From a phage, in the NCBI GenBank assembly GCA_011939005.1, contig GCA_011939005.1_4858.1: a DNA stretch of 64,000 nucleotides. One strand, 5' to 3'. A program made the translations under genes and the position numbers. Below are positions 6,728 through 55,366 of the stretch, one piece after another. A model generated the notes under the pieces. That model had not been told where the DNA came from and made no database searches. It was given only the letters and a program-made list of their open reading frames with translations. Every line of letters begins with the position of its first letter. The stretch's first letter is position 1.

Positions 6728-6739
6728 GGAGATTTTTGA

Positions 6740-25643: not shown

Positions 25644-26297
25644 TCATTTACACATCCCCAACTTAGCCACGTAGTCTGGCATTTCCTGATAGACGCGGCC
25701 ATACCAGCCGTAAGTAAACTCTTCGTTATCCTCACGCCCTTCACTGATTTCCGTGTAGTACGCTACCTGATGACAGGTTAAAGCGAATATCAGTCGATTT
25801 AGGCCCTCTTCCCCACGAGCTTTGATAAAGCCTTCTAACGCTGTTAACGTACGTGGTCCAATACCACCGTCGGCATCGATATCGTCGTACAGTTTACCCT
25901 GACGGTTTAATACGTTCAGAATGCGCTGCAGGGACTTGATACAGTTGCCACGACCTGCGTTGATGCCGAAATCAAACATCCGGTCAGCTAGCAGGACATT
26001 CATTTTCATAATCTGGTCTAAGCGCATCCGCTGCCACCAGAGCTTGTTGTAAATGTCTAACGCGGTTTCTAGGCTCAGGTCACGCATATCCCCTTTATAG
26101 CCATATTCACGCGCCGTGAGTTCGGTGACACCACGGTTCGTTGCTTTACCCAAATCTTTCGGGTTATTAACGTAACCGGCTTCGATGTTTACTTTGGCAC
26201 GAATAATGCCCTCTTTACTCCAACGATCGACCACGATAACCTCCTGCGTTGATAGGGTCATAAAAAGAAAGCCTCTTCCCCGTGGGGAAGAGGGCAT
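25644..26297 (-). CDS. endolysin: GH108-type muramidase with C-terminal peptidoglycan-binding domain
   Basis: EAGYVNNPKD.G..T..GVT...YGY.GDM motif (GH108) and DADGGIGPRTLTAL (PG_binding_3-like). Start ambiguous: M1 at 26297 or M13 at 26261, which sits immediately after a hairpin. Confidence 0.8.
   Translation of the reverse strand: MPSSPRGRGFLFMTLSTQEVIVVDRWSKEGIIRAKVNIEAGYVNNPKDLGKATNRGVTELTAREYGYKGDMRDLSLETALDIYNKLWWQRMRLDQIMKMNVLLADRMFDFGINAGRGNCIKSLQRILNVLNRQGKLYDDIDADGGIGPRTLTALEGFIKARGEEGLNRLIFALTCHQVAYYTEISEGREDNEEFTYGWYGRVYQEMPDYVAKLGMCK
26268..26296 (-). terminator. hairpin terminator after the 722-aa gene, overlapping the possible 5' end of the endolysin gene
   Basis: Stem CCTCTTCCCC / GGGGAAGAGG, T-run on minus strand. 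Confidence 0.5.
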
Positions 26298-28531: not shown

Positions 28532-29851
28532 CTATAGCGCTGGATACCAAGGGACCGGGGCAGTTTTGCTATATGGACTGTAGACCATATAGCCGCCTTT
28601 GCTTGGGTCGTAATAGATGAAATAGTTACAGTAATTCGAGTAGAGGCTCGTCATTTGTTTGGATTGGTATCCGTTACGGTATAGTCCCTGGTAAGTAGTA
28701 GCTGATGTCGTGGTGGTGTAAGCAGTGTGGTACAGTACCCGACGTCGGTTAGCAATACTTTCTTGGAACATCTCTTCGGTCGGAAACGCGTGTTGCATCA
28801 GCCGTCGAATACTCCCGGTACAGTATCGAGTGCCATACGGGGAACCCGTTAAATCATCCGCAGTTTCAGGCGATTCTGCCCGAGTCAACACGTACTCGTT
28901 TTGATACAACGTGACGCTCATCGAATTTGGGCTGGTTTCCCGGAAACTCATGTAACGCGCATAACGTTCGACGTCCTCTTCCTGCGCCAAATAGGCCACG
29001 TTATTTTTCGGACCAAAGTGCAAGAAGAACGGACGGCGGAGATTACCCATATCCTCAGGTGGCGTCAACTTCACGCAGTAATTGTACTCCCCACGCATAT
29101 CAGGGTCTAAGCCTGGGTTGTTATTGCGTGTAGCGACATACCCATAGAGGTCATACGGGTTATCAGTAGCAGCATTACCGATAGTGAACGGGATGCCCGA
29201 CCATGCCGACAGCGCCGCGATGAACTGGGTCATGTACGAGTTACTGTTTAGTCGCAGCGGGGTACCCATCTGGATATTGATTATCTGTTGGGTGTACATG
29301 CTCCAGTCGAGTCGATAGACCGTGCTGTAAACATCCATGGGTTCCCAAGCTCCGGTTTCGGTGGTGTGGTACAAGTCGGCAAAGCTGGGCTCTTCACGAA
29401 TAAAGCTAATAGGAATGTGACCCGTGAATGCGGGGTTATCCGATTTAATCGCCACCGTCCGATCGCCCGTTGCCACAGTGATCATTGCAAACTGGCTGTC
29501 AGGATACGTTAAATCGTCAGCAGTAAGCACCAGCCCACAAGCTGCGGAAATCCGGTCGATGATGTCGCGGTAGACCGTCGCCCGATAAGGTACTTTAACC
29601 GGTACGCTGACGCCTTTAAAATACTGCGAAAGGTTTAAGCGGTCGTAGTAGATGTCCATCTTACCGCTGTAACCACCACCCTGTAATCCGTTTACCACGA
29701 TACGGCTGTTGCGACCATCGCGCAAGGCATTGGTTAAAGGACCTTGTAATAACGCCACGTTGGTTGCGTTGAGCGGTTTCTTGAGCTGCGGGTTATCACG
29801 ATTAATCTGATCCCAAACCAGTTGCATGACAGGTTTGTTATAGTTGATCAT
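28532..29851 (-). CDS. fiber-like protein (439 aa), N-domain paralog
   Basis: Starts MINYNKP..L..QINRDNP, VYYDRLNL motif shared by family. Confidence 0.6.
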   Translation of the reverse strand: MINYNKPVMQLVWDQINRDNPQLKKPLNATNVALLQGPLTNALRDGRNSRIVVNGLQGGGYSGKMDIYYDRLNLSQYFKGVSVPVKVPYRATVYRDIIDRISAACGLVLTADDLTYPDSQFAMITVATGDRTVAIKSDNPAFTGHIPISFIREEPSFADLYHTTETGAWEPMDVYSTVYRLDWSMYTQQIINIQMGTPLRLNSNSYMTQFIAALSAWSGIPFTIGNAATDNPYDLYGYVATRNNNPGLDPDMRGEYNYCVKLTPPEDMGNLRRPFFLHFGPKNNVAYLAQEEDVERYARYMSFRETSPNSMSVTLYQNEYVLTRAESPETADDLTGSPYGTRYCTGSIRRLMQHAFPTEEMFQESIANRRRVLYHTAYTTTTSATTYQGLYRNGYQSKQMTSLYSNYCNYFIYYDPSKGGYMVYSPYSKTAPVPWYPAL

Positions 29852-31990: not shown

Positions 31991-33487
31991 TTATTGGAAT
32001 CCATCCAACTCACCGTTAGTATCGCCCAGAGTAATTTTTGAAGGTTGGGCGATTTGGTCAGTCGTGAGAATAATCGGTCTAATCTTAACGCTAGCCATGC
32101 CTGTTACCGCGACGGAATATGCACGTTCATCATTGTCCGTCGTGGCAAGCAGAGGACGTGGTGAGTCTGATGACGCTTCCCGTACCCAGGCAGGGGTGGC
32201 AGTTTCGGTGTTGTCGGTGTTGAAAACTAACGGACGTGGATTCGCTGCAGCGGAGGTTTCCGTAATCGGCACCACACGAAGCGATTCATTTTGGTCGATG
32301 TCCGTCAGAGTAACCACGGACGGTGCCCATGTTAGTTCTGCACCTTCGTCAATCAACGGCACAGGTTCATTGGCAACATCAATCATCTCCAAGATTGGCC
32401 AAAAGCCAGAAGAGGTGTAGATGTAGGTGTATGAACGATAGCTCCCACTGATAGACTGGTAATACGCTTGGTCGGCACCGAACTGGTGTCGTAACCACAC
32501 GTAATCCAGGAAGTTAGCATCAGTCGTGCTAAGAGTTCCCCATTCCCCATATACGTTCACCGACCCCAATTTGCTGGTCAGTGACAGGATAGAGGTGATT
32601 GACGGCGGTTTACTCCAATCAGGCGCGGCGGCGTTCTCGGTGTAATACGGGATAGACATTCTGAAATAATGCGTTCCTTCATCATCCCGTTTTACCATGT
32701 ATTTCAACTGTTCAACATCGACAGGTGTGTAAGTCGACTTCGGGCGAGGTCCTGCGTCTCCGGAATCAAATATTGCACCCTTGTTGTACAGGTCTGCCCA
32801 GGTAACGTTGCAAATCGCACGGGTCGGAACAAACACTACCGCCCCATTCAGAAAGAATTTGAGCCACTTGATAGCGTAGCGGTTAGGCCAGTTGGTGCCG
32901 TTATAGAGGGCATACACCATTTCATCAGATGTGAATAACTCTTCCGCGCTTACCAGCCCAAAAAATCCGTATAACTCATTACCGGCCATTAATCCTTTTG
33001 GCCCAGGGCCCGACTTCGGATACATCGCAATCGGTTCGTAAACATAGGTCATCTTGCATGACCCGGTATAGCACAAGGAGTTAGCGTGCGCCGTCAGAGT
33101 TACAGTTTCTGGCGTAGCGTATTTCATTAATGCAACGTTTGGACTGGTGATGTCACTCGCGGTTAAGTTCAACCCGTTCAATTCATTGAACGCCGGTAAC
33201 GCTTCCGCATGGGTTTGTGCGCTACGTGGAATACTCACCATCTTCGGGCCAGACTTGAACAGACTGGCCAGATTCAACCGGTCGTAATAGACCGTTATTT
33301 CCCCAGCAAATCCTTTACCGGGTTTACCTACCAACGTAATCTGTGTGTTTCGTCCGTTAACGTTTTTCGCAACAGGAACACCCCTGACCCCAATGGAGTC
33401 AGCGGTGATTTTTCCTGCTAAACCGGGATTGTCACGCACAATTTGTTGGCAGAGCAGTTCCATTGAAGGTTCTGTATACAACCCCAT
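31991..33487 (-). CDS. fiber-like protein (498 aa): N-domain, GPGP module, C-terminal NGELDGF
   Basis: RBS GGAG; VYYDRLNL, SGPGPKGL, ends TNGELDGFQ. Confidence 0.6.
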   Translation of the reverse strand: MGLYTEPSMELLCQQIVRDNPGLAGKITADSIGVRGVPVAKNVNGRNTQITLVGKPGKGFAGEITVYYDRLNLASLFKSGPKMVSIPRSAQTHAEALPAFNELNGLNLTASDITSPNVALMKYATPETVTLTAHANSLCYTGSCKMTYVYEPIAMYPKSGPGPKGLMAGNELYGFFGLVSAEELFTSDEMVYALYNGTNWPNRYAIKWLKFFLNGAVVFVPTRAICNVTWADLYNKGAIFDSGDAGPRPKSTYTPVDVEQLKYMVKRDDEGTHYFRMSIPYYTENAAAPDWSKPPSITSILSLTSKLGSVNVYGEWGTLSTTDANFLDYVWLRHQFGADQAYYQSISGSYRSYTYIYTSSGFWPILEMIDVANEPVPLIDEGAELTWAPSVVTLTDIDQNESLRVVPITETSAAANPRPLVFNTDNTETATPAWVREASSDSPRPLLATTDNDERAYSVAVTGMASVKIRPIILTTDQIAQPSKITLGDTNGELDGFQ

Positions 33488-35443: not shown

Positions 35444-36934
35444 CTACTTAAAGCCGTCCAGTTCACCGTTAAGAGACGTTAACGTTGTCTTGTCAGGGGG
35501 CGTATACATTTCAGCGGTAGCCGCAATAGGTTGAAAATCGACAGTCTTCGGCAGCATTAATGCAGGCGGATGCAGTGCGAAACTGTTTTCTGAAGTAACG
35601 GCCACAGGTTGAAAATCGACAGTCTTCGGCAGCATTAATGCAGGCGGATGCAGTGCGAAACTGTTTTCTGAAGTAACAACTACCGGTTCGAAATCGGTAG
35701 TATCTGGATTACCGAGCACCAACGGCTTGAGACTAAACGTGTTTTCTGCGGACACGCTGCACGGTTGGAGGCTGTAATCTACCGCGCCGTGGATATCTTC
35801 TAAGCCCAAGGTAACCGTGGACTTATCCACCAACTCCAGCACCGGGAACCAGTAGTAGTTGCCCGCACTCGATGATTTTTCTAAGTTTGTCCAACTTGCT
35901 CCAGACAACGTCGCCATGCGATGATTGGCGACGTTGGTGTTCAGTGTATCTTTCAATAAACAGAACAGCGTCCAGTAACTGTTAATCGGTTTGTCCCACG
36001 TTCCATTATACAGAAAGTTGAACATCTCAAACTCACTACCTGCTAACTCAGCGGCAGTTGGGGTGCCGCTGACGTATGGGTCTTTCCCGGCACTAGGTAG
36101 ACGAACGCGGAAGTAAAACCTTTTGTTGTCTGCGCCTGTAAAGCTAATGATGCGTCCCTGGTTAACGGGCGTCGCCGCAGGGTATTTACCATTATCATCT
36201 GTTCCGTAAACGAGTCCGTTTGTATATAACGTATTCCAGGAGATGGAGCTAGCGACAGGACTGATCGGAAGGTAAATAACCCTACCCTGGTAAAAGAACT
36301 TGTACCAACCTTCGGCACCAGAATGTACCGGTGGTAACGCACCGGCCGATATAGTGGCATTAAGAAGTTGAGAGTGTGTAAACAACTCTGCAATTGTGGT
36401 TGTTCCGAAATAACCCGCGATAGTGTTACCTTGCAGCAACGTTTTAGGGCCAGGTCCAGAATCGGGGTAAATTGCACCGCTCGGGACGGTATAACGTATC
36501 GTTAAGCTGCCTATAAACGCAGGGCAATTACCTGAGATATTTAATTTCAACGTCTGCGGCGAAGCGCTCGGTTTAGGTAAACTTGCGTCAGGTGACTGCA
36601 AATCAGAAGCAACTAATGTAAGCCCCAATGCGTCGTTTATTGCAGGTAGCGCGTCTCGTACCGTTAAGACTGTATCTTTGATAGCCACAGTCGGCACAAA
36701 ATTAAATAAAGTGGCCAGGTTAATCCGGTCGTAGTACACGGTAACATTACCTTGTACACCTGTCCCTGGATACCCGGTGAAAACAGCTTTGGTGTTACGT
36801 TGGTTTAACGTAACTGAAGTTGGGCCGCTGGTTAAAGCAGCGATAGCCGGTGTCAGCTTAACAACTAAATCAGGGTTATCCCGATTGACTTGGTCGTATA
36901 CAAGCAGTGCCGACTCCTTCGAGTAAAATAGCAT
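35444..36934 (-). CDS. fiber-like protein (496 aa): N-domain, GPGP module, internal 26-aa tandem repeats, C-terminal NGELDGF
   Basis: VYYDRINL; DSGPGPK; repeated KTVDFQPVAVTSENSFALHPPALMLP; ends NGELDGFK. Confidence 0.6.
   Translation of the reverse strand: MLFYSKESALLVYDQVNRDNPDLVVKLTPAIAALTSGPTSVTLNQRNTKAVFTGYPGTGVQGNVTVYYDRINLATLFNFVPTVAIKDTVLTVRDALPAINDALGLTLVASDLQSPDASLPKPSASPQTLKLNISGNCPAFIGSLTIRYTVPSGAIYPDSGPGPKTLLQGNTIAGYFGTTTIAELFTHSQLLNATISAGALPPVHSGAEGWYKFFYQGRVIYLPISPVASSISWNTLYTNGLVYGTDDNGKYPAATPVNQGRIISFTGADNKRFYFRVRLPSAGKDPYVSGTPTAAELAGSEFEMFNFLYNGTWDKPINSYWTLFCLLKDTLNTNVANHRMATLSGASWTNLEKSSSAGNYYWFPVLELVDKSTVTLGLEDIHGAVDYSLQPCSVSAENTFSLKPLVLGNPDTTDFEPVVVTSENSFALHPPALMLPKTVDFQPVAVTSENSFALHPPALMLPKTVDFQPIAATAEMYTPPDKTTLTSLNGELDGFK
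35524..35684 (-). repeat. 78-bp period tandem direct repeat inside the 496-aa gene
   Basis: Two copies identical over 71 nt (GGTTGAAAATCGACAGTCTTCGGCAGCATTAATGCAGGCGGATGCAGTGCGAAACTGTTTTCTGAAGTAAC), flanked by degenerate copies. Confidence 0.85.
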
Positions 36935-36981: not shown

Positions 36982-37809
36982 TTAGCTGTTATAGTGGTAG
37001 TACGCCACGCCTTTCACGCCTTCCTCATCGATGCCCGTTTGGACAACCACGCGGTCGTACGATTTGTTAGCGAACTGAGCGGTGGATGTCGGCACATCCT
37101 GAACGGTGTTGCTGTTCAGTGGCCCCGCGTAGTTCGGAATACCCAGGTCATCCAACACCTTACGCAATCCAGCCCACTGCGGTAGGCCAGAAGCATCTAC
37201 TGTCAGTAGGTTTTTATACGCGGTAAAGTCAATACCATACGTCAACAAATCAATACACTTCTTACCGAGAGACGGTGAAATAGGCTCTTGAATCGCATTC
37301 AAGACATCCGATTTCACCGAAGTGTCTAGTACCGGTAAACCACGGTTATAACGCAACGTCGCAGAACCGATATAAGCCGGAGATGTCGATAGCGCTACGA
37401 TGTTCTGTGTATTGGTGTAATTTGGGGTATTGGGACCCGCCAGTGGGAGGTTATAGATATCGATTGCAGAGAAGTTTACTCCGTAAGTATCCAAGAGCAC
37501 CGAAAAGGCTGAATGGAGGTTGGGCGCGTCAAACGTGACGAACTGCGCCTGGACAGAAGGACCCCACGGCAATAACCGCGCTAAGTTCACACGGTCGTAG
37601 TAAACGGTGATTGCGTCTCGAAATCCGGAACCCTGAATACCGCGCAAGCGTGCCGACGTATTGCGGTTGTTGGAAGCTGCATTAACGGGAACCTGTGTCA
37701 CTTTCTCCACGTAGCAGTTTGCCGGCGACGCTTTAATAGGTAGGTTTGGGTTATCCCGGTTAATGAGGTCAAAGACCAACTCGTTTGACGGCTTAGCATA
37801 GTTGATCAT
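36982..37809 (-). CDS. fiber-like protein (about 275 aa), N-domain paralog
   Basis: ATG at second codon of tracked ORF with GAGG RBS; starts MINYAKPSNELVFDLINRDNP. Confidence 0.55.
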   Translation of the reverse strand: MINYAKPSNELVFDLINRDNPNLPIKASPANCYVEKVTQVPVNAASNNRNTSARLRGIQGSGFRDAITVYYDRVNLARLLPWGPSVQAQFVTFDAPNLHSAFSVLLDTYGVNFSAIDIYNLPLAGPNTPNYTNTQNIVALSTSPAYIGSATLRYNRGLPVLDTSVKSDVLNAIQEPISPSLGKKCIDLLTYGIDFTAYKNLLTVDASGLPQWAGLRKVLDDLGIPNYAGPLNSNTVQDVPTSTAQFANKSYDRVVVQTGIDEEGVKGVAYYHYNS

Positions 37810-37812
37810 CAA

Positions 37813-38700
37813 TTATACCTCGCTTGGATCGTCCAGATCGTTGAACTGGAGATACAACGTTCCGACGATGGTGGTACAGGTAACAGGCAGTTTCAACGCC
37901 AGCACATACTTGTACTTCGCGTTTGTCGGCATTGCAACAGGGTCATTCAGACCAACACTGATAACCTCCGCGCCCGCCAAACCGTAGGAAGCGGAAGTGG
38001 TCGCTACCCATGCAGTACCCGTGATATCTTTCAGCAGGTTAACCATATCCGTTAACGGCTGTCCGGACAGAATACCCGGCTTGTATGCCAGCAGAGCATC
38101 TCGGTACTTAGTGAAGTTGTACGGGTAGGAATAAACCTCTGCAATGACCGCAGTAACATTTTCGGAACCCATCTGACCGTTCGGGTATTTCAGACCGGTC
38201 AGGACGTTAGTGGTGACTGCAGAGACTAACGACTCATCACCTTTCACGACTTTAAATGTCGCCTGTCCAACCCAACCGATAGACTCTGGATGTGCAACAA
38301 CACGCACAGTACCTTCGGTCTTATCACCGTTCCATTCGATATCTGCGTCCTGCAGGTCAGCTTCTTCCAGAACAAAACCGTAACGTTGGTTCAGTCCAGG
38401 AATGGCCGCATACAAGGTTTCGTTGGATGGGCCGATCGCCAACGTGTCACCGATCAGCACTAACAAGTCTTCGACTTTCATGCGGTTGTAGAAGACATTT
38501 TTCTTACCCGACCAGGTAGAGCCCGTTACCCCATCTGCCGTAATTTTAATTTGCGTGTTACGGTTAGTCAGCGTTTCCTTCTCCGTACCACGGATGTCCT
38601 TTGGCGAGGACCAGATGATGTCAGTCATCTTAACAGCAAGCGAGTTCTGTGCGTTCACTGCTGCCAACAGGACGTCTTTAGAAGGTTGATAAATAGCCAT
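37813..38700 (-). CDS. fiber-like protein (295 aa), N-domain paralog
   Basis: Contiguous with neighbours, no intergenic gap; family N-terminus. Confidence 0.55.
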   Translation of the reverse strand: MAIYQPSKDVLLAAVNAQNSLAVKMTDIIWSSPKDIRGTEKETLTNRNTQIKITADGVTGSTWSGKKNVFYNRMKVEDLLVLIGDTLAIGPSNETLYAAIPGLNQRYGFVLEEADLQDADIEWNGDKTEGTVRVVAHPESIGWVGQATFKVVKGDESLVSAVTTNVLTGLKYPNGQMGSENVTAVIAEVYSYPYNFTKYRDALLAYKPGILSGQPLTDMVNLLKDITGTAWVATTSASYGLAGAEVISVGLNDPVAMPTNAKYKYVLALKLPVTCTTIVGTLYLQFNDLDDPSEV

Positions 38701-38710
38701 TCGCTAATTC

Positions 38711-39550
38711 CTAGTTGTTGTAGTGCAACATACACTCGCCGATTACTTTCGGGTCGTTCTGAATGCCGGTAATCAGCAATACGTTATCGTACGCTTTATT
38801 GGCGGTCGCCAACTCACTCGTTTTGTAGCGGGTAATTGTGCAGTTCGTCGGATCAAACGACGGTACCCCACGTGCGACCAATGTGGCCATCAGATTGGAC
38901 GTGTAACCCAAATCAAAGTTACTTCCTACATCCATTCGCCCGTTCTTAAACGAGGCCATAACCTGCACTTCATCGGTAAAGTCTTCCCCGTACGTCAAGA
39001 AGCCCATGTATTTCTTACCAGTGCTTGCTGCTGCAGGGTGGTTCAAAGCCAACAAGATGTCGTTTACCACGAGGTCTTCGAGGCTATTCTTACCCCGGAT
39101 AGACATAAAGGTGATGCTGCCAGTGTATTGGATACAGCTAGCGTTAATACGCATCGTGTTGTTTACGTTCAGATAAACGTATTGTTCTGGGATATCATCT
39201 GCAACCAGGTTTAATCCATAACGACCGTTCAGGTTCTGCGCAAACGCAGTACGTTTCGACTCCACGTTCAACCAACCGTAGGCATTCGGTGCAGTTACCT
39301 GAGGTGTCATGTTCTTAAATAAGTCGTTCAGCGACAAGCGCTTATAACGGAACGTCTGGGGACCGATATAGCCACGACCTTGACGACCACGAATGATAAT
39401 CTCAGTATTGGCACCGCTTGCTGTCGGTGTGATTGCTTTCGGCGTACCGATGATAGCATTGTCTAAACCCATCGGTAGCACAGCATCCGGGTTTTCGGCA
39501 TTAATCGCATCGTACAGATATTGTCGCTGAGACAGACTATATAAAGCCAT
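38711..39550 (-). CDS. fiber-like protein (about 279 aa), N-domain paralog
   Basis: Internal ATG with RBS GAGGAGG; ends LHYNN. Confidence 0.55.
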   Translation of the reverse strand: MALYSLSQRQYLYDAINAENPDAVLPMGLDNAIIGTPKAITPTASGANTEIIIRGRQGRGYIGPQTFRYKRLSLNDLFKNMTPQVTAPNAYGWLNVESKRTAFAQNLNGRYGLNLVADDIPEQYVYLNVNNTMRINASCIQYTGSITFMSIRGKNSLEDLVVNDILLALNHPAAASTGKKYMGFLTYGEDFTDEVQVMASFKNGRMDVGSNFDLGYTSNLMATLVARGVPSFDPTNCTITRYKTSELATANKAYDNVLLITGIQNDPKVIGECMLHYNN

Positions 39551-39569
39551 AATAGCCTCCTCGGCCAAA

Positions 39570-39612
39570 AAAGAAAGGAGTAGCCGGGAGGAGGATTTCC
39601 TCCTCCCAGCGA
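39570..39612 (-). terminator. hairpin, possible intra-operon terminator/attenuator
   Basis: Stem GGGAGGAGG / CCTCCTCCC with AAAT loop; T-run follows after a short spacer on minus strand. Confidence 0.45.
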
Positions 39613-39619
39613 GGCCTAA

Positions 39620-40531
39620 TTAGGCATTAAAGTGCAGGTACATGATGCCCTGGAAGTTGGTGCACAGAGTGTCATCCAGCTGCAGCAGCAGAACCTGGTT
39701 GTAAGCAGTGTTTGCACCTTCAACCGGTTTCTTAGGTTCGTCGCCTGAAGCAGTGCCATCGTCAGTAGTAGAACCAACGTACAACACGTTAGCACCTTTC
39801 AGGTTATAATCCGCAGGCTCATCAGATGCAACCCACAGTTCCGGCACAACTTTATTCAGCTCAACCGGGAATGCAGAGTCGCCAGCGATAACACCTTTCG
39901 CCTGTACTTTCAGGAATGGTGCGATTGCTGTGCAGTCTACACCGTAAGAGTAGATGTAACCCTGACCCTTCGCTTCGCTTGGACCATCTGGGTAAACCAG
40001 GCCGTCGAGCTTGGTTTGTGTTACCACCAGACTCAGACGTTCACCAACCTGAGGCTTAGCACCGATTTTAACCGGGATGCTGCCCAGATAAGCGTAGCAG
40101 TCTTCTTTGAAGGTAATGACGTGGTCAACCGGTGCTGGGTCCGGATCGTTCGGGTTAGTCAGCGGCGGGTTGGTATTTTCCGGAATAGCCGCCGGAACAA
40201 TATCATCTTCGGTCAGTTTCAGACCGTATTGGGTGTTCAGGGTCGTCAGCAGGTCGGTGGTGGTTTTCGGCAATTTAACGTCGAGGTATGCCGTTACATT
40301 ACGGAACAGCGCACCGCCTTCCAGGCGATTATAAGTCACGTCCTGAGTACCGATGTACCCGGAGTTCTTTTTCGCAGTCAGGGTCATGCTGGTATTGCGA
40401 TCAGCACCTTCATCGCTAATAGGGGTCGGTGTGCCGAGCGTTATTTTAGAAAGTTCCAGTTCTGCGTCTGGGTTTTTCTCATTAATAAAATCCAGAACCA
40501 GCTTATCTGACGTTTTGTTTAAAGGTTTCAT
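39620..40531 (-). CDS. fiber-like protein (303 aa), N-domain paralog
   Basis: RBS AAGGAAG; ends LHFNA. Confidence 0.55.
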   Translation of the reverse strand: MKPLNKTSDKLVLDFINEKNPDAELELSKITLGTPTPISDEGADRNTSMTLTAKKNSGYIGTQDVTYNRLEGGALFRNVTAYLDVKLPKTTTDLLTTLNTQYGLKLTEDDIVPAAIPENTNPPLTNPNDPDPAPVDHVITFKEDCYAYLGSIPVKIGAKPQVGERLSLVVTQTKLDGLVYPDGPSEAKGQGYIYSYGVDCTAIAPFLKVQAKGVIAGDSAFPVELNKVVPELWVASDEPADYNLKGANVLYVGSTTDDGTASGDEPKKPVEGANTAYNQVLLLQLDDTLCTNFQGIMYLHFNA

Positions 40532-40552
40532 TCTTACTTCCTTTACTCAGGA

Positions 40553-41398
40553 TTAATCAGGGTCGTTGTAATGCAAATACAAACGCCCGCCAAAATTCAG
40601 ACAGTACAACGACAGCTCCACAATCAGCACGTTGTCGACTGCTGGGTTGGTTGGTAATTCCGCTTTGTTACGCCCGTTATAGACGACGACGGCTTCACGA
40701 AGGTTAAAGTCGATTGGGTTACGGTACGTTGTCCAGTTATCACCGGTGACCGTTTTGAGAATCTGCGCCAGACGTTCTGCGGTTATCGCAGCACCTAGTC
40801 GTTGAAATTCCTCCGCGAAATTATCAAAGCGCCAGGGATACGAATAAACTGCACCTTGACCGACCTTGATGTTAAAATACGGATACTCGTAAGGCATCAC
40901 TGTTAACGGTTCGAAGTTTGCAGGAAGCAACGCATCGCCTGGTAACAGCTGTACCTGTTGTTGCCCTATCCAACCTAAAGAAGAGGGCGTGGCAATCAGA
41001 TCCACACGCCATGTCTTCCTGTCGATTTCGGTATTCACCACATCTGCAGGTTTAAGGCTGAGACCGTAATACTGGTTAATTAACCCGACCACGTCATGCA
41101 TCTGGTAAACAGCATCGAGACGTGCAGGAACACGTAAAGGTTGAATCCCGTCTGGGTCGGTAAACATGTCTGCGAAGTCAACACGATCGTAATAGACGGT
41201 AGTGGCACCGATAGCATTAGCCGTGGCCAATGCCTGAATGCGCACCATCGCGTTGTGACCGTTAGCTTTTGCCAAGTCTTCGTCAGACGTTGGAATCGCA
41301 GGGACACCAAAAACAACATCCTCGACTTTTAAATCGAGATTGTTTTCGACGTTAACTTCCGCGATAATAATCTTTTCAGCTGTGGCTAAAAGTGGCAT
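40553..41398 (-). CDS. fiber-like protein (281 aa), N-domain paralog
   Basis: RBS AAGGA; ends LHYNDPD. Confidence 0.55.
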   Translation of the reverse strand: MPLLATAEKIIIAEVNVENNLDLKVEDVVFGVPAIPTSDEDLAKANGHNAMVRIQALATANAIGATTVYYDRVDFADMFTDPDGIQPLRVPARLDAVYQMHDVVGLINQYYGLSLKPADVVNTEIDRKTWRVDLIATPSSLGWIGQQQVQLLPGDALLPANFEPLTVMPYEYPYFNIKVGQGAVYSYPWRFDNFAEEFQRLGAAITAERLAQILKTVTGDNWTTYRNPIDFNLREAVVVYNGRNKAELPTNPAVDNVLIVELSLYCLNFGGRLYLHYNDPD

Positions 41399-41408
41399 GT
41401 CAAAATCC

Positions 41409-42251
41409 TTATATCGGGAGATAATGAAGGATGAGATTACCGGCGTAGTTGCTGTCCGCAGCTAGCTTGATAATCGCCACACGCTGATAATCGGGGTTGT
41501 AACTATCGTTCGGTGTGACTGAAGTTATCCCCATAAATCGTGCACCTTGGAGTGCAATTTGTTCAGGTTGCGCATTCGCCCCCGTCACATATGCAAACTT
41601 TAATGGCACCACTTCATTCAACAACTCAACATCCGCTGCAGTGATTGCACGGTTGTAAACCCAATCGGTGGTGAACTGTTTTTGCAGTTCAGTCCAATCG
41701 TAACCATACGCCACATACTCGGCCTGTGGTTTACTAGCAACCACGAACGGTGCGATTATTGCGCTGAGGTCAACATCCGTCACCACATCCGCCAAGTTCG
41801 GGAAGAACTTCGCAAAGCGTAAACGGAAACCACCTTGCCAGGCCAAGCAACCGGGCTTAATAGTCACATCGATTAACCAGCTTTCTCCCAAATCTTTTAC
41901 TGACTGGTCAACGATATCGTCGGCAACTAAAGACAAGCCGTATTTCGCATTCAGAAACGGCAACAACTCAGAGAGTTTATTTACCGGGTCGGCAACGACT
42001 ACCGGTATTACGTTCCTGAACAGAATTTCCATTTCGATACGGTCGTATTCGAGCGTAACGTTGCCTTTGTAGCCCTTGCCGTTCAACCCGTATAAGAGCA
42101 CACGTGTATTCCGGTCAGCGCCAGGCGTTTGGACAGACTCAGGGAAGCCAGTTGCAACCTGCTCCCATGTGAGTGGATTGGCCGTTAATCCGTTCTGTCG
42201 GTTAATAGCATCTAACAACATCTCTTTCGAGGGCTTATCGTAAATAGACAC
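41409..42251 (-). CDS. fiber-like protein (280 aa), N-domain paralog
   Basis: Apparent GTG start with AGGAGG RBS overlapping upstream stop. Confidence 0.55.
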   Translation of the reverse strand: MSIYDKPSKEMLLDAINRQNGLTANPLTWEQVATGFPESVQTPGADRNTRVLLYGLNGKGYKGNVTLEYDRIEMEILFRNVIPVVVADPVNKLSELLPFLNAKYGLSLVADDIVDQSVKDLGESWLIDVTIKPGCLAWQGGFRLRFAKFFPNLADVVTDVDLSAIIAPFVVASKPQAEYVAYGYDWTELQKQFTTDWVYNRAITAADVELLNEVVPLKFAYVTGANAQPEQIALQGARFMGITSVTPNDSYNPDYQRVAIIKLAADSNYAGNLILHYLPI

Positions 42252-42261
42252 CTATACCCTC

Positions 42262-43059
42262 CTAGTTGTTAAAGTGTAAGTTGAGGCTGCCCTGGAAGTT
42301 CGTACATTTATCGGTCAGTTGCACTGACACGACTTTCGCGAACGCCGTATTTGCTCCCGGTAAGTCTGCAGGTACGCCGTCGAATACGACAGTAGCACCA
42401 CGCAAGTTATACGGGGATGGGGTATCTTCAGCCACCCAAATCTCAGGAACACATTTGTTGAGTTCGATTGCTAACGCCGTGTCATCTACTTCGATACCGA
42501 CCGCTAAGAGGCTCAGGAAACGAGAGATGTGGCTACAATCGATGTCGCGCGAATAGATATACGCCTGACCCAACTGGATGTCCTGGTGATCCGGGTACAG
42601 AAGACCGCTCAACTCTGTATTGGTTATTACTTCTGCCAGAGGTGTAGCAGGTTTCAGCTCGATGACCGCTTGACTTCGCCACTCGTGGGAAGTTTCAACA
42701 GCAACGACTGTGTGAGTCTGTCCATCAATGGGGTTATCTTCGATATCCTCAGGTAAGATAGACAGATTAAAACGCTCGTTAATCGCCGCGAGTAAGTCGT
42801 GCGTGGTATGCACATCTTCATCGCCAAAGGCAACATCGCCTGTAAGGTAGTCCTCTAATGGACGACGATGATAGTCCACAATCACTTGCGTACCTTCATC
42901 ACCGCGCATTTTCGAGGTTAGTACCACCTCCGAATCACGACCGTCTACTGACACAACCTCCGGCAGTCCGATATCAACATCGTCAAAGGTAAGCGGTGGG
43001 CTTATCTTATTCTCTTCGTTGATGAGTTTTAGCAGATTCTGTTTTGAAGTAAAAGACAT
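42262..43059 (-). CDS. fiber-like protein (265 aa), first gene of the paralog array
   Basis: Starts MSFTSKQNLLKLINEEN; ends LHFNN. Confidence 0.55.
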   Translation of the reverse strand: MSFTSKQNLLKLINEENKISPPLTFDDVDIGLPEVVSVDGRDSEVVLTSKMRGDEGTQVIVDYHRRPLEDYLTGDVAFGDEDVHTTHDLLAAINERFNLSILPEDIEDNPIDGQTHTVVAVETSHEWRSQAVIELKPATPLAEVITNTELSGLLYPDHQDIQLGQAYIYSRDIDCSHISRFLSLLAVGIEVDDTALAIELNKCVPEIWVAEDTPSPYNLRGATVVFDGVPADLPGANTAFAKVVSVQLTDKCTNFQGSLNLHFNN

Positions 43060-47842: not shown

Positions 47843-48502
47843 TTATTGTTTAGCCCAGTATTCGGCTAACGTTTGGTCGCCTTTACCGATGCGAGCATGA
47901 ATGCCCATTTTACGCAGCCGGCACAGCTCAAGGGACATAGTGTTTAGTTTGATAAGATTTACGTCCGTTGGGCTCTTAAGGCAATCGTCTAATACATTAA
48001 CGAATTTATCCAGCGCCTCTTGCGGAACTTTGCCTTCTGGGTAGTCGTACAGTGTTATCACTTTAAAGGTGTAACCGTCGATATTCGACAACTGTTTTAC
48101 AGCTTCACTGATATCACGATTTATCATCGGCGTCCTATTGAGACGCATTGGTCTGGCAACACGGATTACTCTACCCATTAACCACCCCAAACCACTTACA
48201 GTGGATGCTGCGGGGACATCCAGGTTATTCATCCATAACGACAGTTTGTTCATCTTCGCCGCGGTTTCAGGACTAGGGTTATTGCGCAAGTCACTTAAAG
48301 CCATCGCATACTGGGTTGCCAGTATTTGACTGCCGTAGAAAGCACTGCGGCTTACTGGTAACGCTTCGAAGCGTGCATCGAAATTGTTTGCTTGGTTAAG
48401 TTCTTTAACAGTGCTCAGAATGGCTTCTTGCATTCGAAGTTCACCGTCGCCTTCAAGGTCAGTTGCCTGACGCAATACCGCAATGTGATAGACTTTAGAC
48501 AT
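47843..48502 (-). CDS. hypothetical protein (219 aa)
   Basis: RBS AAGGAG; promoter-like motif about 75 nt upstream. Confidence 0.5.
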   Translation of the reverse strand: MSKVYHIAVLRQATDLEGDGELRMQEAILSTVKELNQANNFDARFEALPVSRSAFYGSQILATQYAMALSDLRNNPSPETAAKMNKLSLWMNNLDVPAASTVSGLGWLMGRVIRVARPMRLNRTPMINRDISEAVKQLSNIDGYTFKVITLYDYPEGKVPQEALDKFVNVLDDCLKSPTDVNLIKLNTMSLELCRLRKMGIHARIGKGDQTLAEYWAKQ

Positions 48503-48590: not shown

Positions 48591-48591
48591 A

Positions 48592-48630
48592 AAGGTTAGG
48601 TGGTACCTCTACGAGGTACCACCTAGACAC
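48592..48630 (-). terminator. rho-independent terminator
   Basis: Stem GGTGGTACCTC / GAGGTACCACC with short loop. Confidence 0.6.
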
Positions 48631-50790
48631 TTACTGATATATTTTGATTTGTGGGTAACTATAGCGATAGCTATCGCTATCAACATCCTGACCGACAAAC
48701 AAAATGCCTGTGTTAGAAAACGCCGCGCTGCAATACAATGTTAGCCCGGCGGGGTTAGAAATCGTATTACCGTAGTAGGCGCTGTAGCGCATGTACTTAC
48801 CATCATTCTTCACAAACAGGCTGCCTAACGATCCAACCATTCCGAAGATCAAACAAGCACCATCGGGAGAAACACAGACATTGCCGTTCGGATATCGAGT
48901 GGATGTTACACTATAATCAATTTCCGTGTAATCCAACTCACGTGTCGCCACCCAACCATCGGCGCGTTTTTCGAAGATGTAGTATTTGTGGGTTTCAAGG
49001 ACGGATACCAGTATGACTGAAAAGTTCGAAGATGCTGCCACCTTCAACGTCGAGGCTTCTGCTAACCCTGGGATGTCTAGCTTAGCGGTTTCAACATAGA
49101 GTCCTTCTGAACCTTTAGTTACGATATGGACAGATTTTCCATTGTGCTCTGAAAAAGCAACGCTGGTGCCATCGGCGGTCATCGCGATACTGTCGTACGA
49201 ACCACACAGAGCACCAGAATCGTCGAAGTCAAACGTGAGCGTTTCGTAATTTGAAAACCCATCACTTTTTTGGTAAACAGCTATTTCGCGCGTACCATTC
49301 CCAACGAACAGTGTCTCTCCGTCCGGGGTGAGTTTGACCAACTTACCGTTTACACCGGCGGCCGGGAGATTGGTAATTGCCGTTGGCGTCACTTTGCCCC
49401 ACGCCATGTCGGCACCGTTGTCGTAAACCAGCACTGCGCCCTTCGTTGTTTCTCCAGTTATCGCGGAAGGAATCCCGACGACGAACAAATCGCCTGACTT
49501 GTTTATCGATACCGGACAACGCCCGTCGGTTTCCGCATTTTCACCAGTATCAAAAGTTAGATCCATCAGAATGCTGGCATCGTGTCTATAGCCTGGGAAA
49601 TCTTTTCTATATATAGAAATTGTAGTTGAACGCTTTGCAAGCGGAGTGGTAATCAGAACATTTGCATCGCTACTACAATCCAATTCTGCACCCAACGAAT
49701 AATTATTTTCCGAAGACACGTTCAACGACTGGAATTCATTCGATGGGTATACGTTTCGGCTTATCTTTATCCGATAAGGATCGGACCACTGTCCGACGGT
49801 GTCCTCACCACGATATCTGACGCGTAGCCAATAACTACTACCGTATTGAAGCACGTTATCCGGCAGAGTTATCGTTGTAAGGTTTCGCATATCGAACAAT
49901 GAAGAGAATGGTAGGTTGCTACTAGGACTAAAATCTAACGTATCGCCATAGTTATAATAGAGTTTCCAGTCTGTAGCAATATGCGTTTCCGTGCCTGAAG
50001 TTTCAAACGTCGATGTTTCTATCGTTAAACCTGACGGTCCGTTCACATCGGTTGGGGTTGGCGACACTATCGTCGGTTTTTGGATTGTGGTCTCTATTAC
50101 CGAAAACATGGTTACTGACCAGTCACTATTAACCGTATCTGAGTGAAATTTAGCACGGGCGTAATACGTCTTGTTTCCTACCAGTGTGCCGGGTGGTAAA
50201 GTTAGAAATTTTTTAGCATCCTGAGATTCGAGCAATTGGTAAACCGTAGTGGAAAAATCTTCATTTTCAGACACTTCCCAACTCGTCGCTCTATGAGGTG
50301 TTGTTTGAAACGGCCTTGCAGTGAAGCCATTGAGGATAAAATCCAGATCACTAGCTGAACTAGAACCGTAGTACGGGGAAATCCATGTAGGCGCGTCCAC
50401 TACATTAGAGACCACCTCAATTTCATAGGTTTTGGTGATGCCGTTAGCAGAAACGGTCAGCGTAATAATTTGTCCTAACTGCCGAGGATCTTCGATAAAC
50501 AACGTATAGTTTAAACCTCCATAATGCCTGATTGTTGCTTCAGGGCACGTTACCTGATAAACCGACGGTTCTTCATTACCGGCAATGTAAAAAAGCGTTT
50601 CACTGCCTAGAATGCATTTTTTTTCATTTCCGTCGGAAAAGATTACAGTGAATGATGACTCTGCAGAAGCATCTGACAACGGTATCTTGTATTCGATTCC
50701 ATCCTTACTAAATAAAACAACCCCACCCGTTTTATCCCCAGTAAATTCAGGCAGTTCGTGTAAACGTTTCTTTTTGACTACAGTTGCCAT
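48631..50790 (-). CDS. large structural protein (719 aa) with tandem FN3/Ig-like domains
   Basis: Two FN3-like segments (W.V...E.F...Y...YYARAKF; W.L.Y..G....YWLRVRYRG); Thr/Ser-rich beta-type composition. Confidence 0.55.
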   Translation of the reverse strand: MATVVKKKRLHELPEFTGDKTGGVVLFSKDGIEYKIPLSDASAESSFTVIFSDGNEKKCILGSETLFYIAGNEEPSVYQVTCPEATIRHYGGLNYTLFIEDPRQLGQIITLTVSANGITKTYEIEVVSNVVDAPTWISPYYGSSSASDLDFILNGFTARPFQTTPHRATSWEVSENEDFSTTVYQLLESQDAKKFLTLPPGTLVGNKTYYARAKFHSDTVNSDWSVTMFSVIETTIQKPTIVSPTPTDVNGPSGLTIETSTFETSGTETHIATDWKLYYNYGDTLDFSPSSNLPFSSLFDMRNLTTITLPDNVLQYGSSYWLRVRYRGEDTVGQWSDPYRIKISRNVYPSNEFQSLNVSSENNYSLGAELDCSSDANVLITTPLAKRSTTISIYRKDFPGYRHDASILMDLTFDTGENAETDGRCPVSINKSGDLFVVGIPSAITGETTKGAVLVYDNGADMAWGKVTPTAITNLPAAGVNGKLVKLTPDGETLFVGNGTREIAVYQKSDGFSNYETLTFDFDDSGALCGSYDSIAMTADGTSVAFSEHNGKSVHIVTKGSEGLYVETAKLDIPGLAEASTLKVAASSNFSVILVSVLETHKYYIFEKRADGWVATRELDYTEIDYSVTSTRYPNGNVCVSPDGACLIFGMVGSLGSLFVKNDGKYMRYSAYYGNTISNPAGLTLYCSAAFSNTGILFVGQDVDSDSYRYSYPQIKIYQ

Positions 50791-51323
50791 TATACATCGT
50801 CTCCGTAGGTTAACACTGCATCATCACCGATGCATAAAACAGTTTCTTCATCCAGACTTGCCACAGCTTCTTTTTCATTAAACGCCGTGAATGTAAAGGT
50901 AGCCGTCCAAGCCGGTGAATCGTCACTCATCGCTGCAATCAATGGCTCGTTTGTTGGTGTAATAACCCCTGTCGAGATGTCTTCACGTGACAAGTTTAAA
51001 CCGCATAACTGGTTTACAACTGTCGCTAAATCAGCATAGGTGTCGCCGGGAGCTACAGTAACCAGTATCGGTCCTTGCGGGTCGATAATATTATTAGCGA
51101 CTAGACGGTCGTAATAGACGGTAACCTTCTTGCCGTTAGGTTTACGTGCTTTCGCAATGTACGCTTGCGAGGTACGGGCACTTTCAACACCTAAGTCGAT
51201 TGGCCCTACTCCGCTTATCACAATCTCGTCAGGCGATAATGACAAGCCGTTATCGTGATTAATCAACGCCACGACAAGCGCTTTCGACGAGATTGTTAGG
51301 TCGGGCTGATAGCGGTCTGCCAT
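50790..51323 (-). CDS. short N-domain family protein (about 177 aa), possible adaptor
   Basis: Internal ATG with GGAGG RBS; LINHDN...VTVYYDRL motif of the fiber N-domain family; stop overlaps start of the 719-aa gene. Confidence 0.5.
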   Translation of the reverse strand: MADRYQPDLTISSKALVVALINHDNGLSLSPDEIVISGVGPIDLGVESARTSQAYIAKARKPNGKKVTVYYDRLVANNIIDPQGPILVTVAPGDTYADLATVVNQLCGLNLSREDISTGVITPTNEPLIAAMSDDSPAWTATFTFTAFNEKEAVASLDEETVLCIGDDAVLTYGDDV

Positions 51324-51334
51324 TAACGCCTCCA

Positions 51335-51388
51335 GAAACAAAAAAAATAAGCTACCACACATATGATCGTGTGGTAGCCTACTCGTAC
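51335..51388 (-). terminator. rho-independent terminator
   Basis: Stem GCTACCACAC / GTGTGGTAGC followed by T-run on minus strand. Confidence 0.6.
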
Positions 51389-51392
51389 GCTG

Positions 51393-53605: not shown

Positions 53606-55366
53606 TTACGCGTTCTCTGTCCAAGCACGCCCACGCAGCGTTTCACCGCGTATGTCATATTGCTTATATTTCGAAGAGTCGTAAGACGCAGGTAGGAAGA
53701 TCTGATGAACAATATCCGCCAGTCGACGAGCACCAAGGTTCTCTACAGCATTGGCTTCCATTGTTTTCTCAGCGATGAACGTATAGGTGTCCATGTCGTA
53801 CTGCGTTTCCACCCCTTCGGTTTTCAACAACTTAATCATGCCGTGGAACTCACTGTTATCCAACTTACAGATAGCAATCAGTGCCTCGGTATCCAGCGAA
53901 GACATTTTCGCTCTTAACGGAAAACGTCCCTGGAGTTCTGCCATGAGTTTAGAAACAGGCGCTTGAGCAAACGACCCAGCAGCGACAAAAAGCACATTGG
54001 TTGTGTCAACGCCATGATAAATACCCCCTTCAACCATTTTCAACAAGCTACGCTGCACACCACTACGGGATACACGTGCGGTGTGTTGCGTGTCAGTCTC
54101 GATAAGTTTGTCAAACTCATCCAAGAACACCACCGCAAAGTTCTCAACGAAATCATGCCCATTACAGTTGGGTAGTTTCTTGAGGTCTTTGCGGCTGACT
54201 GTTTCTTTTTCTGGTGCAACTGTTTCAGGTATCTCGTAATGCCAGAGCCGTTCATCGGCGTATTTGGTAAATTCTGGAGAACCTTCGAACACGTCATCCC
54301 ACCAACGACACCACTTCTCAGGATCTTCCAAACGAGACAACAAGCGAATAGTAAACGCTGTAGCGTTGATCGGGAGCCAATTAATGCCCACCGGCTCGAC
54401 GTCCTCGTCGTCGCCGTTAAACGTGTCGAACAAATCGTAGAAATCTGAGCCATCGGCACACGAGAGTGGCAGGTTATTTGACATCAGCGCTTGACCGGCA
54501 TCAACGTATAAGTCAATCTGTTCGCCTAAAGCCATCAGCGACATAAACTCACCCATATACCCAATCGCGCCCGGTATATCACCATCCATTAACTTATCGA
54601 CTTGACTTTCAAGTTCTACACTATTCAACAGTTCAGAAATTGACGAGACACCGAGCAGACTCCTTGCGATTTCCGACATCTTATCTATCCATTCCTGCAC
54701 AGTACGGCCACCGAGCGTAACAGAATAGATATCGAAGTCTTCGTAGGTTAAATTGTGTTGACGGCAATAGCCAACCATAAACGCGCGAAGACAATAGATG
54801 TCTTGGTATTCTTCGTACAACTCCTTCGGATCGAGTATACCCTGACGCCGTAATAGTTCGGTGTGGTCACGTTTAGCTTGATACCGCAGCTGGCGCTCAG
54901 CTGCGCGCTCGTCTAGTTCGCGCTCAACTTCCTTACGGGATTCACGCTCCCACTCTTCACGAGTAAGACGATTACCGTCTACTTCCGTCTCGACACGTCG
55001 TTTGGTACGCAGCTCGATATACCAGTCGGGCAATTCGACAGAACGCGCTAAGTCGGCTAAGTCCTTGCCGATTGATGTAACTTCCCGGCCTACGTAGCCT
55101 GATTCTGTAAACGCGGTCATGTCGAGTTCCAGCACAGGTAAACCGAATTTAGTTTTCAGTACCCGCATCAACGCTGTTTTACCCGTGCCTGTTGGACCTT
55201 CTATTAAAAGGTTCTGTTTGTGGACCGACATACGGTCCACTACGTTGAGTTTGTTGGCACGATATCGATTACGTAGCGCAATCGCCAGCATTTTCTTTGC
55301 CTGCGTTTGTCCGTATACGTAACGGTCGAATAGCGCCACTATCTCAACCGGCGTGAGGTTTTCCAT
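53606..55366 (-). CDS. hslU: HslU-like AAA+ ATPase/unfoldase (586 aa)
   Basis: N-terminus GQ..AK..LAIALRNRYR....nLLieGPTGTGKT (Walker A) then TESGYVG; C-terminus FLDEFDK...GVQRSLLK.VEG...AAGSF...LQGRFP...GARRL, colinear with HslU including an inserted domain; RBS AGAGGA. Confidence 0.8.
   Translation of the reverse strand: MENLTPVEIVALFDRYVYGQTQAKKMLAIALRNRYRANKLNVVDRMSVHKQNLLIEGPTGTGKTALMRVLKTKFGLPVLELDMTAFTESGYVGREVTSIGKDLADLARSVELPDWYIELRTKRRVETEVDGNRLTREEWERESRKEVERELDERAAERQLRYQAKRDHTELLRRQGILDPKELYEEYQDIYCLRAFMVGYCRQHNLTYEDFDIYSVTLGGRTVQEWIDKMSEIARSLLGVSSISELLNSVELESQVDKLMDGDIPGAIGYMGEFMSLMALGEQIDLYVDAGQALMSNNLPLSCADGSDFYDLFDTFNGDDEDVEPVGINWLPINATAFTIRLLSRLEDPEKWCRWWDDVFEGSPEFTKYADERLWHYEIPETVAPEKETVSRKDLKKLPNCNGHDFVENFAVVFLDEFDKLIETDTQHTARVSRSGVQRSLLKMVEGGIYHGVDTTNVLFVAAGSFAQAPVSKLMAELQGRFPLRAKMSSLDTEALIAICKLDNSEFHGMIKLLKTEGVETQYDMDTYTFIAEKTMEANAVENLGARRLADIVHQIFLPASYDSSKYKQYDIRGETLRGRAWTENA

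Follow-up and report, generated by a model that had tools for sequence, protein, structure and literature searches.

What connects a short protein that carries only the N-terminal module of a large phage paralogue family with the much larger protein whose gene begins where its own ends? This arrangement occurs in a 64,000-nucleotide (nt) stretch of phage DNA (contig GCA_011939005.1_4858.1 of GenBank assembly GCA_011939005.1; "the window"), which megablast places in the genus Seoulvirus, i.e. among the SPN3US-like chimalliviruses, jumbo phages of Salmonella and E. coli; about 80-88% of positions 40000-64000 align at 95.5-97.2% identity to the Salmonella phages 1252, SPLA3, SPN3US and others. 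The two genes are located on the minus strand and encode proteins of 177 and 719 amino acids (aa). From the letters and translations only, an earlier inspection (the sequence-only reading) had proposed that they form a pair of an adaptor and a decoration or fibre protein. Here we find that the 719-aa gene is the product of a cassette swap which replaced genes 123 and 124 of SPN3US and kept the N-terminal anchor, and that the pairing of a short DUF7941 gene with an anchor-bearing gene recurs at other loci. We propose that the small protein may be an adaptor and the large one an exchangeable fibre, and we assign this model as a whole a probability of roughly 0.6.

Both open reading frames (ORFs) are real and their stop and start codons overlap, just as the sequence-only reading had stated: the TAA of the small gene (50790..50792) and the ATG of the large gene (50788..50790) have one base in common in the sequence TAATG (Table 1), i.e. 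the pair shows the stop overlapping or abutting the next start that is typical of translational coupling. The large gene also has its own Shine-Dalgarno sequence, GGAGA, 9 nt upstream of its ATG. For the small gene, a mechanical ORF call begins at 51362 and yields 190 aa, its start codon lying inside a hairpin; the ATG listed in Table 1 is the most likely start, as GGAGG is found 7 nt upstream and the resulting length equals that of the SPN3US orthologue. The hairpins on both sides of the pair are matches of a pattern scan and their function as terminators is putative. Together with the TAATG overlap, these bracketing terminator-like elements give the pair the appearance of a self-contained bicistronic unit.

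The small protein is a truncated member of the DUF7941 family. It matches Pfam DUF7941 (PF25613) with E = 2.8e-17 and 63.5 bits (cutoff 27) over positions 4-162 of the 276-position profile as well as phrog_2935, 'virion structural protein' (3e-43), it is the orthologue of SPN3US gp122 (SPN3US_0122, 98% identity), and phmmer ties it directly to four DUF7941 paralogues of the window with E values of 2.6e-9 to 2e-5, far beyond chance. The chain consists of the DUF7941 N-terminal domain and a short C-terminal tail (…CIGDDAVLTYGDDV), in which 'AVLTYGDDV' aligns with the 'LTYG(I/E)DF' that follows the N-domain in full-length paralogues; ~20 residues in all align with the start of the linker. Of the full architecture, which comprises N-domain, disordered linker and C-terminal globular domain, the C-domain and most of the linker are missing. 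Goslar gp23, as described in the preprint cited below, likewise has no C-domain, and the 177-aa protein is shorter still. An AlphaFold2 (AF2) model of the small protein (predicted local distance difference test, pLDDT, 74.5) yields just one significant PDB match by fold, the N-terminal domain of phiKZ gp127 (9xqd_0; E = 4e-6, TMt, a template modelling score, 0.64, 153 columns). The 177-aa sequence alone retrieved nothing significant from the PDB sequences; a profile of the window paralogues retrieved one chain, again 9xqd_0 (PHIKZ127), with E = 2.6e-21. Pfam, the phmmer links, the alignment and the gp127 fold thus all confirm the statement of the sequence-only reading that the small protein carries an N-module common to the paralogues.

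The large protein can be divided into four regions (Table 1), i.e. an N-terminal anchor, an immunoglobulin (Ig)-like domain, two fibronectin type III (FN3)-like repeats and a seven-bladed β-propeller. The AF2 model, built on 18 full-length homologues, reaches a pLDDT of 73 and a predicted template modelling score (pTM) of 0.55; the anchor is disordered in this monomer model, whereas the propeller is confidently folded, with a pLDDT of 82-93 over most of residues 370-620 except for two 10-residue blocks at 61 and 69. Residues 352-718 show the strand pattern of seven four-stranded blades, with the ring closed by a velcro arrangement. The best Foldseek matches in the PDB are the FN3-plus-propeller receptors ROS1 and Sevenless and seven-bladed WD40 proteins (TMt 0.67-0.77), and the viral matches are generic FG-GAP or propeller proteins. 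The lowest conservation within the protein (18% identity to homologues) is found in codons 46-128, which encode the Ig-like domain.

Profile databases recognize little of this chain. The 719-aa protein has no Pfam match above threshold (Ig_Rha78A_N, PF25788, reaches 12.1 bits against a cutoff of 27.4, and fn3 is not matched), the propeller matches no Pfam FG-GAP family and gives only sub-threshold hints (Beta-prop_EML_2 at 13.8 bits, and DUF1513), no PHROG family is matched, and neither the sequence alone nor an 18-sequence profile finds anything significant among PDB sequences. Residues 130-340, in contrast to the Pfam result for the protein itself, are homologous (phmmer E values down to 1.5e-68) to repeats that Pfam labels in other proteins as Ig_Rha78A_N (up to 1e-94), fn3, PhoD_N or Pur_ac_phosph_N, and the two FN3-like copies resemble each other with z = 5.5 against shuffled sequences. 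Two of the matching proteins (P0089 and P0145) align further towards the C-terminus and carry 5-6 FG-GAP_2 repeats by HMMER and Pfam, suggesting a distant relationship of the propeller to FG-GAP_2 proteins that is transitive via these two. The sequence-only reading had called the protein an FN3/Ig-like repeat protein; one Ig-like and two FN3-like domains are indeed present, but the FN3-like part makes up only ~30% of the chain and half of the chain is the propeller, which that reading had overlooked, so that this description is only partly true.

Close relatives of the large protein are few. An exhaustive HMMER search returned 357 proteins, most of which cover only residues ~130-340 and a few of which extend into the C-terminal half; the sole full-length relatives form one family of 709-710 aa (P0002, 39% identity) on ~226-kb metagenomic phage contigs. 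A word-indexed search of 5.8 billion proteins retrieved only the protein's own cluster, 74 sequences of 99% identity from Salmonella and E. coli assemblies. In a tblastn search against 50,697 phage records, the match was confined to residues 1-39 and came from Erwinia phage Asesino. Two candidates were set aside: P0094, in which 17 stretches match residues 18-56, is a repetitive bacterial cadherin/Big_9 protein and was rejected as a compositional artefact, and P0016 (259 aa), a possible separate architecture, is near-identical to residues 1-259 of the 709-aa family and was taken as a truncated copy. Many assemblies of Salmonella isolates (serovars Enteritidis, Virchow, Saintpaul, Newport and others) and of E. 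coli isolates contain near-identical copies of both proteins of the pair on contigs of 237-243 kb. Complete E. coli genomes contained no copy, and a contig look-up with the exact sequence of the window's protein gave no record. Complete genomes of this lytic-type jumbo phage are thus being sequenced together with the isolates, owing to a carrier state or to contamination.

A comparison of the locus with SPN3US reveals how the 719-aa gene came to its place. In SPN3US and every other related isolate examined, the slot contains gp122 (177 aa), followed with an overlapping start by gp123 (156 aa) and then by gp124 (1005 aa), the latter annotated as 'tail-associated protein'. Residues 1-40 of the 719-aa protein are 65% identical to gp123, the first 13 residues being the same, and beyond residue 40 there is no similarity to gp123 or gp124. 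At the nucleotide level, SPN3US and 1252 match the flanks (46086-48594 and 50753-53000) with 95-97% identity (blastn), and the segment between the flanks has no homology to either phage; its counterpart in SPN3US is 3.5 kb long and comprises the remainder of gp123 together with gp124. As homology resumes at 50753, one junction lies inside the anchor-coding region, in codon 13, and the other is found just past the downstream hairpin, which therefore falls within the swapped segment. The 719-aa gene is thus a cassette swap that replaced gp123 and gp124 and retained the N-terminal anchor. With a G + C content of 0.453 the segment is not distinctive for foreign origin (flanks: 0.464-0.466).

Three variants of this locus are found in Seoulvirus-like contigs. 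Besides the SPN3US-type arrangement, contig L020 shows a 177-aa to 719-aa arrangement identical to that of the window, and L018 and L019 encode a 649-aa protein followed by the 156- and 1005-aa genes. In the 649-aa protein (WP_194151140.1; L018 6001..7950, L019 4633..6582) the gp122 module is preceded by ~470 extra N-terminal residues that match no Pfam family and, judged by eye, look α-helical and glycoside-hydrolase-like; this fusion implies that the adaptor can bear a large cargo fused to its N-terminus. No Pfam families were matched by SPN3US gp123 and gp124 or by the small anchor proteins of other loci.

The anchor is not restricted to this slot. A hidden Markov model (HMM) of the anchor motif, with the consensus (M)A..(V/I)KK.R(L/I)H(E/D)L…G(D)…(V)L(F/L)SKD.K(E/D)YK, was scanned over 17 loci, and in every locus with downstream sequence except L016 an anchor-bearing gene directly follows a short DUF7941 gene. 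The distance between the two varies, with an overlap of 32 nt at one extreme and a gap of 207 nt at the other: the genes overlap in SPN3US, Asesino and L009, are separated by 2-3 nt in L003 (second pair), L008 and L013, by 133 nt in the first L003 pair and by about 207 nt in L012. The adjacency is kept across phages whose short DUF7941 proteins are only 27-49% identical to that of the window and whose cargoes are unrelated; cargo lengths over all loci are 153-161, 206, 709/719 and 1435-1541 aa. The ~226-kb metagenomic contigs that encode the 709-aa homologues of the large protein show synteny with Seoulviruses; on L003, 3 nt separate the end of a 170-aa DUF7941 gene from the 709-aa gene, which is followed by a DUF4376 gene, and upstream a 187-aa DUF7941 gene precedes the gene for a 1435-aa protein with Gp34_trimer and Peptidase_S74 domains. 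The motif begins the 709-aa and 1435-aa proteins as well as a 273-aa protein of L003. Among the phage records of the collection it is found in Seoulvirus and Erskinevirus only, one copy each, and it occurs once in the window (HMM, all six frames); the three very large ORFs of the window show no similarity to the anchor HMM.

Two loci in which the pairing is incomplete look like footprints of repeated cassette turnover. In L016, a metagenomic phage, the short DUF7941 gene (6998..7510) is kept and the 709-aa and DUF4376 genes are lost, and in L012 the short DUF7941 gene is separated from a 1480-aa fibre gene by a 33-codon remnant of an anchor gene (7521..7622). In the ~226-kb phages, DUF4376 proteins (184-186 aa; L003 10140..10700 and 6831..7385) are encoded after the 709-aa gene as well as after the long-fibre cassette. 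The window has no DUF4376 gene after the 719-aa gene, its hairpin being located directly past the stop codon, and we speculate that DUF4376 proteins are fibre assembly factors that have no counterpart in the Seoulvirus cassette.

Where the pair might act depends on the location of DUF7941 proteins in the phage particle, on which three sources disagree. Ali et al. (2017; PMC5694885) assigned the 20 members of SPN3US 'paralogue family B' to the head because they were seen in tailless particles, and suspected that gp122, which they did not detect in wild-type virions, belongs to this family. In the structural atlas of phiKZ (PMC13250141), gp127 is located in the star-lobe of the outer peripheral baseplate. 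In a 2026 preprint on phage Goslar (10.64898/2026.04.21.720040), DUF7941 proteins are described as an N-domain joined by a disordered linker to a C-domain, and predicted to assemble into head-to-tail oligomers in which the linker docks onto the next N-domain; purified gp22 forms filaments, some members have carbohydrate-binding, hydrolase or leucine-rich repeat C-termini, and a baseplate-anchored 'fibre cloud' is proposed, the authors mentioning that their preparations captured other large assemblies. To speak of the window's DUF7941 array as fibre paralogues, as the sequence-only reading had done, is defensible in the light of the phiKZ and Goslar baseplates and of the filaments, yet contested by the head assignment in SPN3US. 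The slot proteins gp123 and gp124 occur in virions of the wild type and of mutants, and the SPN3US proteome does not list either of them as a head protein, which indirectly supports a location of the 719-aa protein in the virion and at the tail.

Based on these observations we infer the following mechanism. The 177-aa protein, as a truncated DUF7941 protein, would serve as docking adaptor, its C-terminal stub tying it into the DUF7941 or peripheral-baseplate network and its globular domain receiving the disordered ~40-residue anchor peptide of the protein encoded downstream. Adjacency, tight coupling, the disorder and conservation of the peptide, and the predicted propensity of DUF7941 N-domains to accept a peptide of a neighbour fit such a socket. 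The 719-aa protein would be an exchangeable cargo that entered by recombination, with the junction in the anchor-coding region, and replaced gp123 and gp124; its Ig/FN3 domains may form a stalk and the propeller a distal head, which may bind, or possibly modify, a structure on the host surface. A conserved attachment N-terminus, common to gp123 and to the Gp34_trimer/Peptidase_S74 fibres, combined with an exchangeable distal part at a mosaic locus is what is seen in receptor-binding proteins, and we regard it as likely that the 719-aa protein is a host-recognition protein of the virion acquired by cassette exchange. For the 177-aa protein being its direct docking partner we see about even odds. 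That short DUF7941 proteins in general are sockets for a non-covalently held ~40-residue plug, and that the 719-aa protein represents a new receptor-binding class of Salmonella and E. coli Seoulviruses, is a more tentative extension.

Several observations weigh against this mechanism. Only 3 peptides of gp122 were found, and only in a 47(am1) mutant preparation (PMC5694885, Supplementary Table 3), so that the presence of the small protein in the particle is uncertain; proteins of the gp122 type may be of very low copy number or non-structural. The earlier proposal of an adaptor and fibre pair is partly supported: the coupling, the stand-alone N-module, the recurrent pairing and the presence of slot proteins in virions speak for it, and the scarcity of gp122 in virions speaks against it. 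In addition, L003 has three anchor genes and two short DUF7941 genes, L016 retains its short DUF7941 gene without any cargo, the anchor HMM detects nothing similar among DUF7941 linkers (as the six-frame scan of the window showed no such resemblance, we abandoned the notion of the anchor as a diverged DUF7941 linker recognizable by sequence), the baseplate position of gp127 is a docked AlphaFold model at ~4.4 Å (PMC13250141), and the designation of the SPN3US DUF7941 paralogues from tailless particles as head proteins (PMC5694885) conflicts with a baseplate location. Three of these points would favour a 719-aa fibre that docks on its own, its anchor occupying a conserved site of the baseplate, with the small protein as a non-structural assembly factor for the fibre or as one more DUF7941 filament protein whose gene is the neighbour by chance: gp123 and gp124 are present in the virion proteomes from which gp122 is essentially absent, the 273-aa anchor gene of L003 has no short DUF7941 gene of its own, and in L016 the short gene outlived its cargo. 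Self-docking is nevertheless doubtful in our view, as the genes have stayed adjacent despite the divergence of the short proteins and the unrelated cargoes, and as the fold of the small protein is that of phiKZ gp127, which is modelled in the baseplate. Chaperones of fibres are usually encoded downstream of the fibre, which counts against the small protein as an assembly factor, and in L003 it is the DUF4376 gene that occupies the downstream position instead.

The head assignment leads to another explanation, according to which DUF7941 proteins reside on or in the capsid and the 719-aa protein is a Hoc-like head fibre for loose adherence to surfaces. Ig-like and FN3-like domains are a typical feature of proteins that decorate capsids, and both family B and gp155, which combines DUF7941 with a Gp38-like domain, were found in tailless particles and labelled 'Head'. 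We consider a head fibre unlikely, since the anchor-sharing slot proteins gp123 and gp124 are not among the head-labelled proteins of SPN3US and phiKZ gp127 is modelled in the outer baseplate; moreover, free DUF7941 filaments could co-purify with heads, the Goslar preparations having captured other large assemblies and gp22 forming filaments on its own. It is more improbable still that the pair is not a virion component at all and acts as an intracellular or released factor, e.g. with the propeller as an enzyme on host envelope polymers during infection or lysis. β-Propellers are often enzymes, as noted for gp131 (PMC13250141), and the 719-aa protein belongs to no PHROG family, but it has its N-terminal anchor in common with gp123, a virion protein, the same anchor heads the proteins with Gp34_trimer and Peptidase_S74 tail-fibre domains in relatives, and the gene is situated in a structural-gene neighbourhood. 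An adaptor with an exchangeable fibre thus remains our preferred explanation.

The proposed pair may be compared with several known systems. SPN3US_0122-0124 (Asesino gp139-141) have the same slot, a small gene (98% identical in SPN3US), the stop/start overlap and the ~40-aa motif, but consist of a 156-aa anchor protein and a separate 1005-aa protein instead of the single 719-aa protein of the window. Goslar gp22/gp23, phiKZ gp126/gp127 and SPN3US family B resemble the 177-aa protein in their N-terminal globular domain and the linker stub 'LTYG(D/I)D', and like other chimalliviruses the window contains a large DUF7941 array; in contrast to the DUF7941 fusions, the small protein is partnered with a separately encoded cargo. 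The fibre protein gp131 of phiKZ carries a distal seven-bladed β-propeller on a baseplate-attached fibre (PMC13250141), a layout similar to that of the 719-aa protein, for which the location is inferred, and gp131 and its SPN3US counterparts (family C, gp168-170) also have a conserved N-terminal attachment segment and differing C-termini (PMC13250141). There is no sequence similarity between gp131 and the 719-aa protein and their N-terminal attachment modules are different, i.e. the resemblance is one of fold class and position. As in the modular exchange of tail fibres and receptor-binding proteins in tailed phages, the N-terminus is conserved, the remainder is unrelated and the junction is in the anchor; unlike the classic case, the partner is a chimallivirus-specific DUF7941 protein and the cargo of Ig, two FN3-like domains and propeller has no obvious trimerization elements.

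The DUF7941 family, the small gene as an orthologue and fibre mosaicism with a constant N-terminal anchor and a variable C-terminus were known before; what is new is the Ig/FN3/propeller cargo of 719 aa found in a Seoulvirus, together with the mapping of the swap and the rule by which short DUF7941 genes and anchor genes are paired, and the searched passages of the Goslar preprint (10.64898/2026.04.21.720040) do not mention such a pairing. SPN3US-like phages are candidates for the biocontrol of Salmonella and little is known about their host-range determinants. The locus, with its three variants, is a hot spot for the exchange of modules, and the 719-aa protein is absent from every phage record of the searched collection, yet dozens of assemblies of Salmonella and E. 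coli isolates contain it. The pairing yields a testable hypothesis that links the abundant DUF7941 proteins of nucleus-forming jumbo phages to host-recognition proteins, and it bears on the question of a head or baseplate location of DUF7941. If the plug-and-socket principle holds true, it would explain both the exchange of receptor-binding modules and the physical link of fibres, depolymerases and DUF7941 filaments, and the anchor peptide would be a handle for host-range engineering.

Table 1. Features of the pair, of its swapped segment and of the DUF7941 ORFs of the window that match the N-module only.
Feature	Coordinates	Strand	Basis and remarks
Small gene, 177 aa	50790..51323	-	start ATG 51323
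Large gene, 719 aa	48631..50790	-	ORF; putative exchangeable fibre / receptor-binding protein
TAATG stop/start overlap	50788..50792	-	sequence read
Terminator-like hairpin, 5' edge of pair	51345..51384	-	pattern scan; 17-bp stem, then T-run; just upstream of small gene
Terminator-like hairpin, 3' side	48597..48625	-	pattern scan; 13-bp stem, 7 GC pairs; 6 nt past the 719-aa stop
N-terminal anchor, codons 1-45	50656..50790	-	motif MATVVKKKRLHEL…GD…VLFSKD..EYK; pLDDT <50, disordered in monomer model
Ig-like eight-stranded β-sandwich, codons 46-128	50407..50655	-	AF2 secondary structure
Two FN3-like repeats, codons 129-346 (129-232, 233-346)	49753..50406	-	HMMER and β-sandwich models
Seven-bladed β-propeller, codons 347-719	48634..49752	-	AF2 and Foldseek; FG-GAP_2 repeat proteins as distant relatives
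Swapped segment without nucleotide homology to SPN3US or phage 1252	48595..50752	unstranded	local blastn, megablast, SPN3US annotation
N-module-only DUF7941 ORF with Gp38 adhesin-like domain	26349..28517	-	Pfam
N-module-only DUF7941 ORF	28532..29851		Pfam
N-module-only DUF7941 ORF	31991..33487		Pfam
N-module-only DUF7941 ORF	35444..36934		Pfam

Apart from the small gene of the pair, Pfam finds DUF7941 in 11 further ORFs of the window, all located between 26349 and 43059. Seven of them match over the full length and encode paralogues of 265-303 aa (36982..43059), and the remaining four match with the N-module only, which is joined to other C-terminal regions (Table 1). The nearest of these paralogues is ~5.5 kb away from the pair, in line with the remark of the sequence-only reading that the pair is located outside the main array. 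One of the N-module-only ORFs encodes a 722-aa protein in which the DUF7941 module is accompanied by a domain resembling the Gp38 tail-fibre adhesin (Pfam GP38, 7e-18); judged only by its size and position, it looks like the orthologue of SPN3US gp155 (725 aa). As gp155 is listed as 'Head' in the SPN3US proteome, an adhesin domain in this protein sharpens the conflict between head and baseplate for DUF7941. The array is adjoined by a gene for an endolysin-like 217-aa protein with Glyco_hydro_108 and PG_binding_3 domains (25644..26297, minus strand), and three ORFs of 1237, 1376 and 1742 aa (3014..16149) are probably members of family C, judged by size only (gp170, gp169 and gp168 have 135, 149 and 188 kDa).

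The genes flanking the pair match no Pfam family. On one side, a single 219-aa ORF (47843..48502, minus strand) takes the place of two genes, which encode 110 and 101 aa in SPN3US and 110 and 94 aa in L020; as the nucleotide homology is unbroken here, the stop codon between them has apparently been lost in the window, or there is a sequencing difference. On the other side, a few kb from the pair, lies a second variable slot. It is occupied in the window by the gene for a 586-aa AAA+ protein (AAA_2; 53606..55366, minus strand), which is annotated as hslU in phage MET_P1_082_240 and is also present in phage 1252 and contig L020, whereas SPN3US has an annotated 161-aa 'head maturation protease' paralogue and small ORFs at this position instead.

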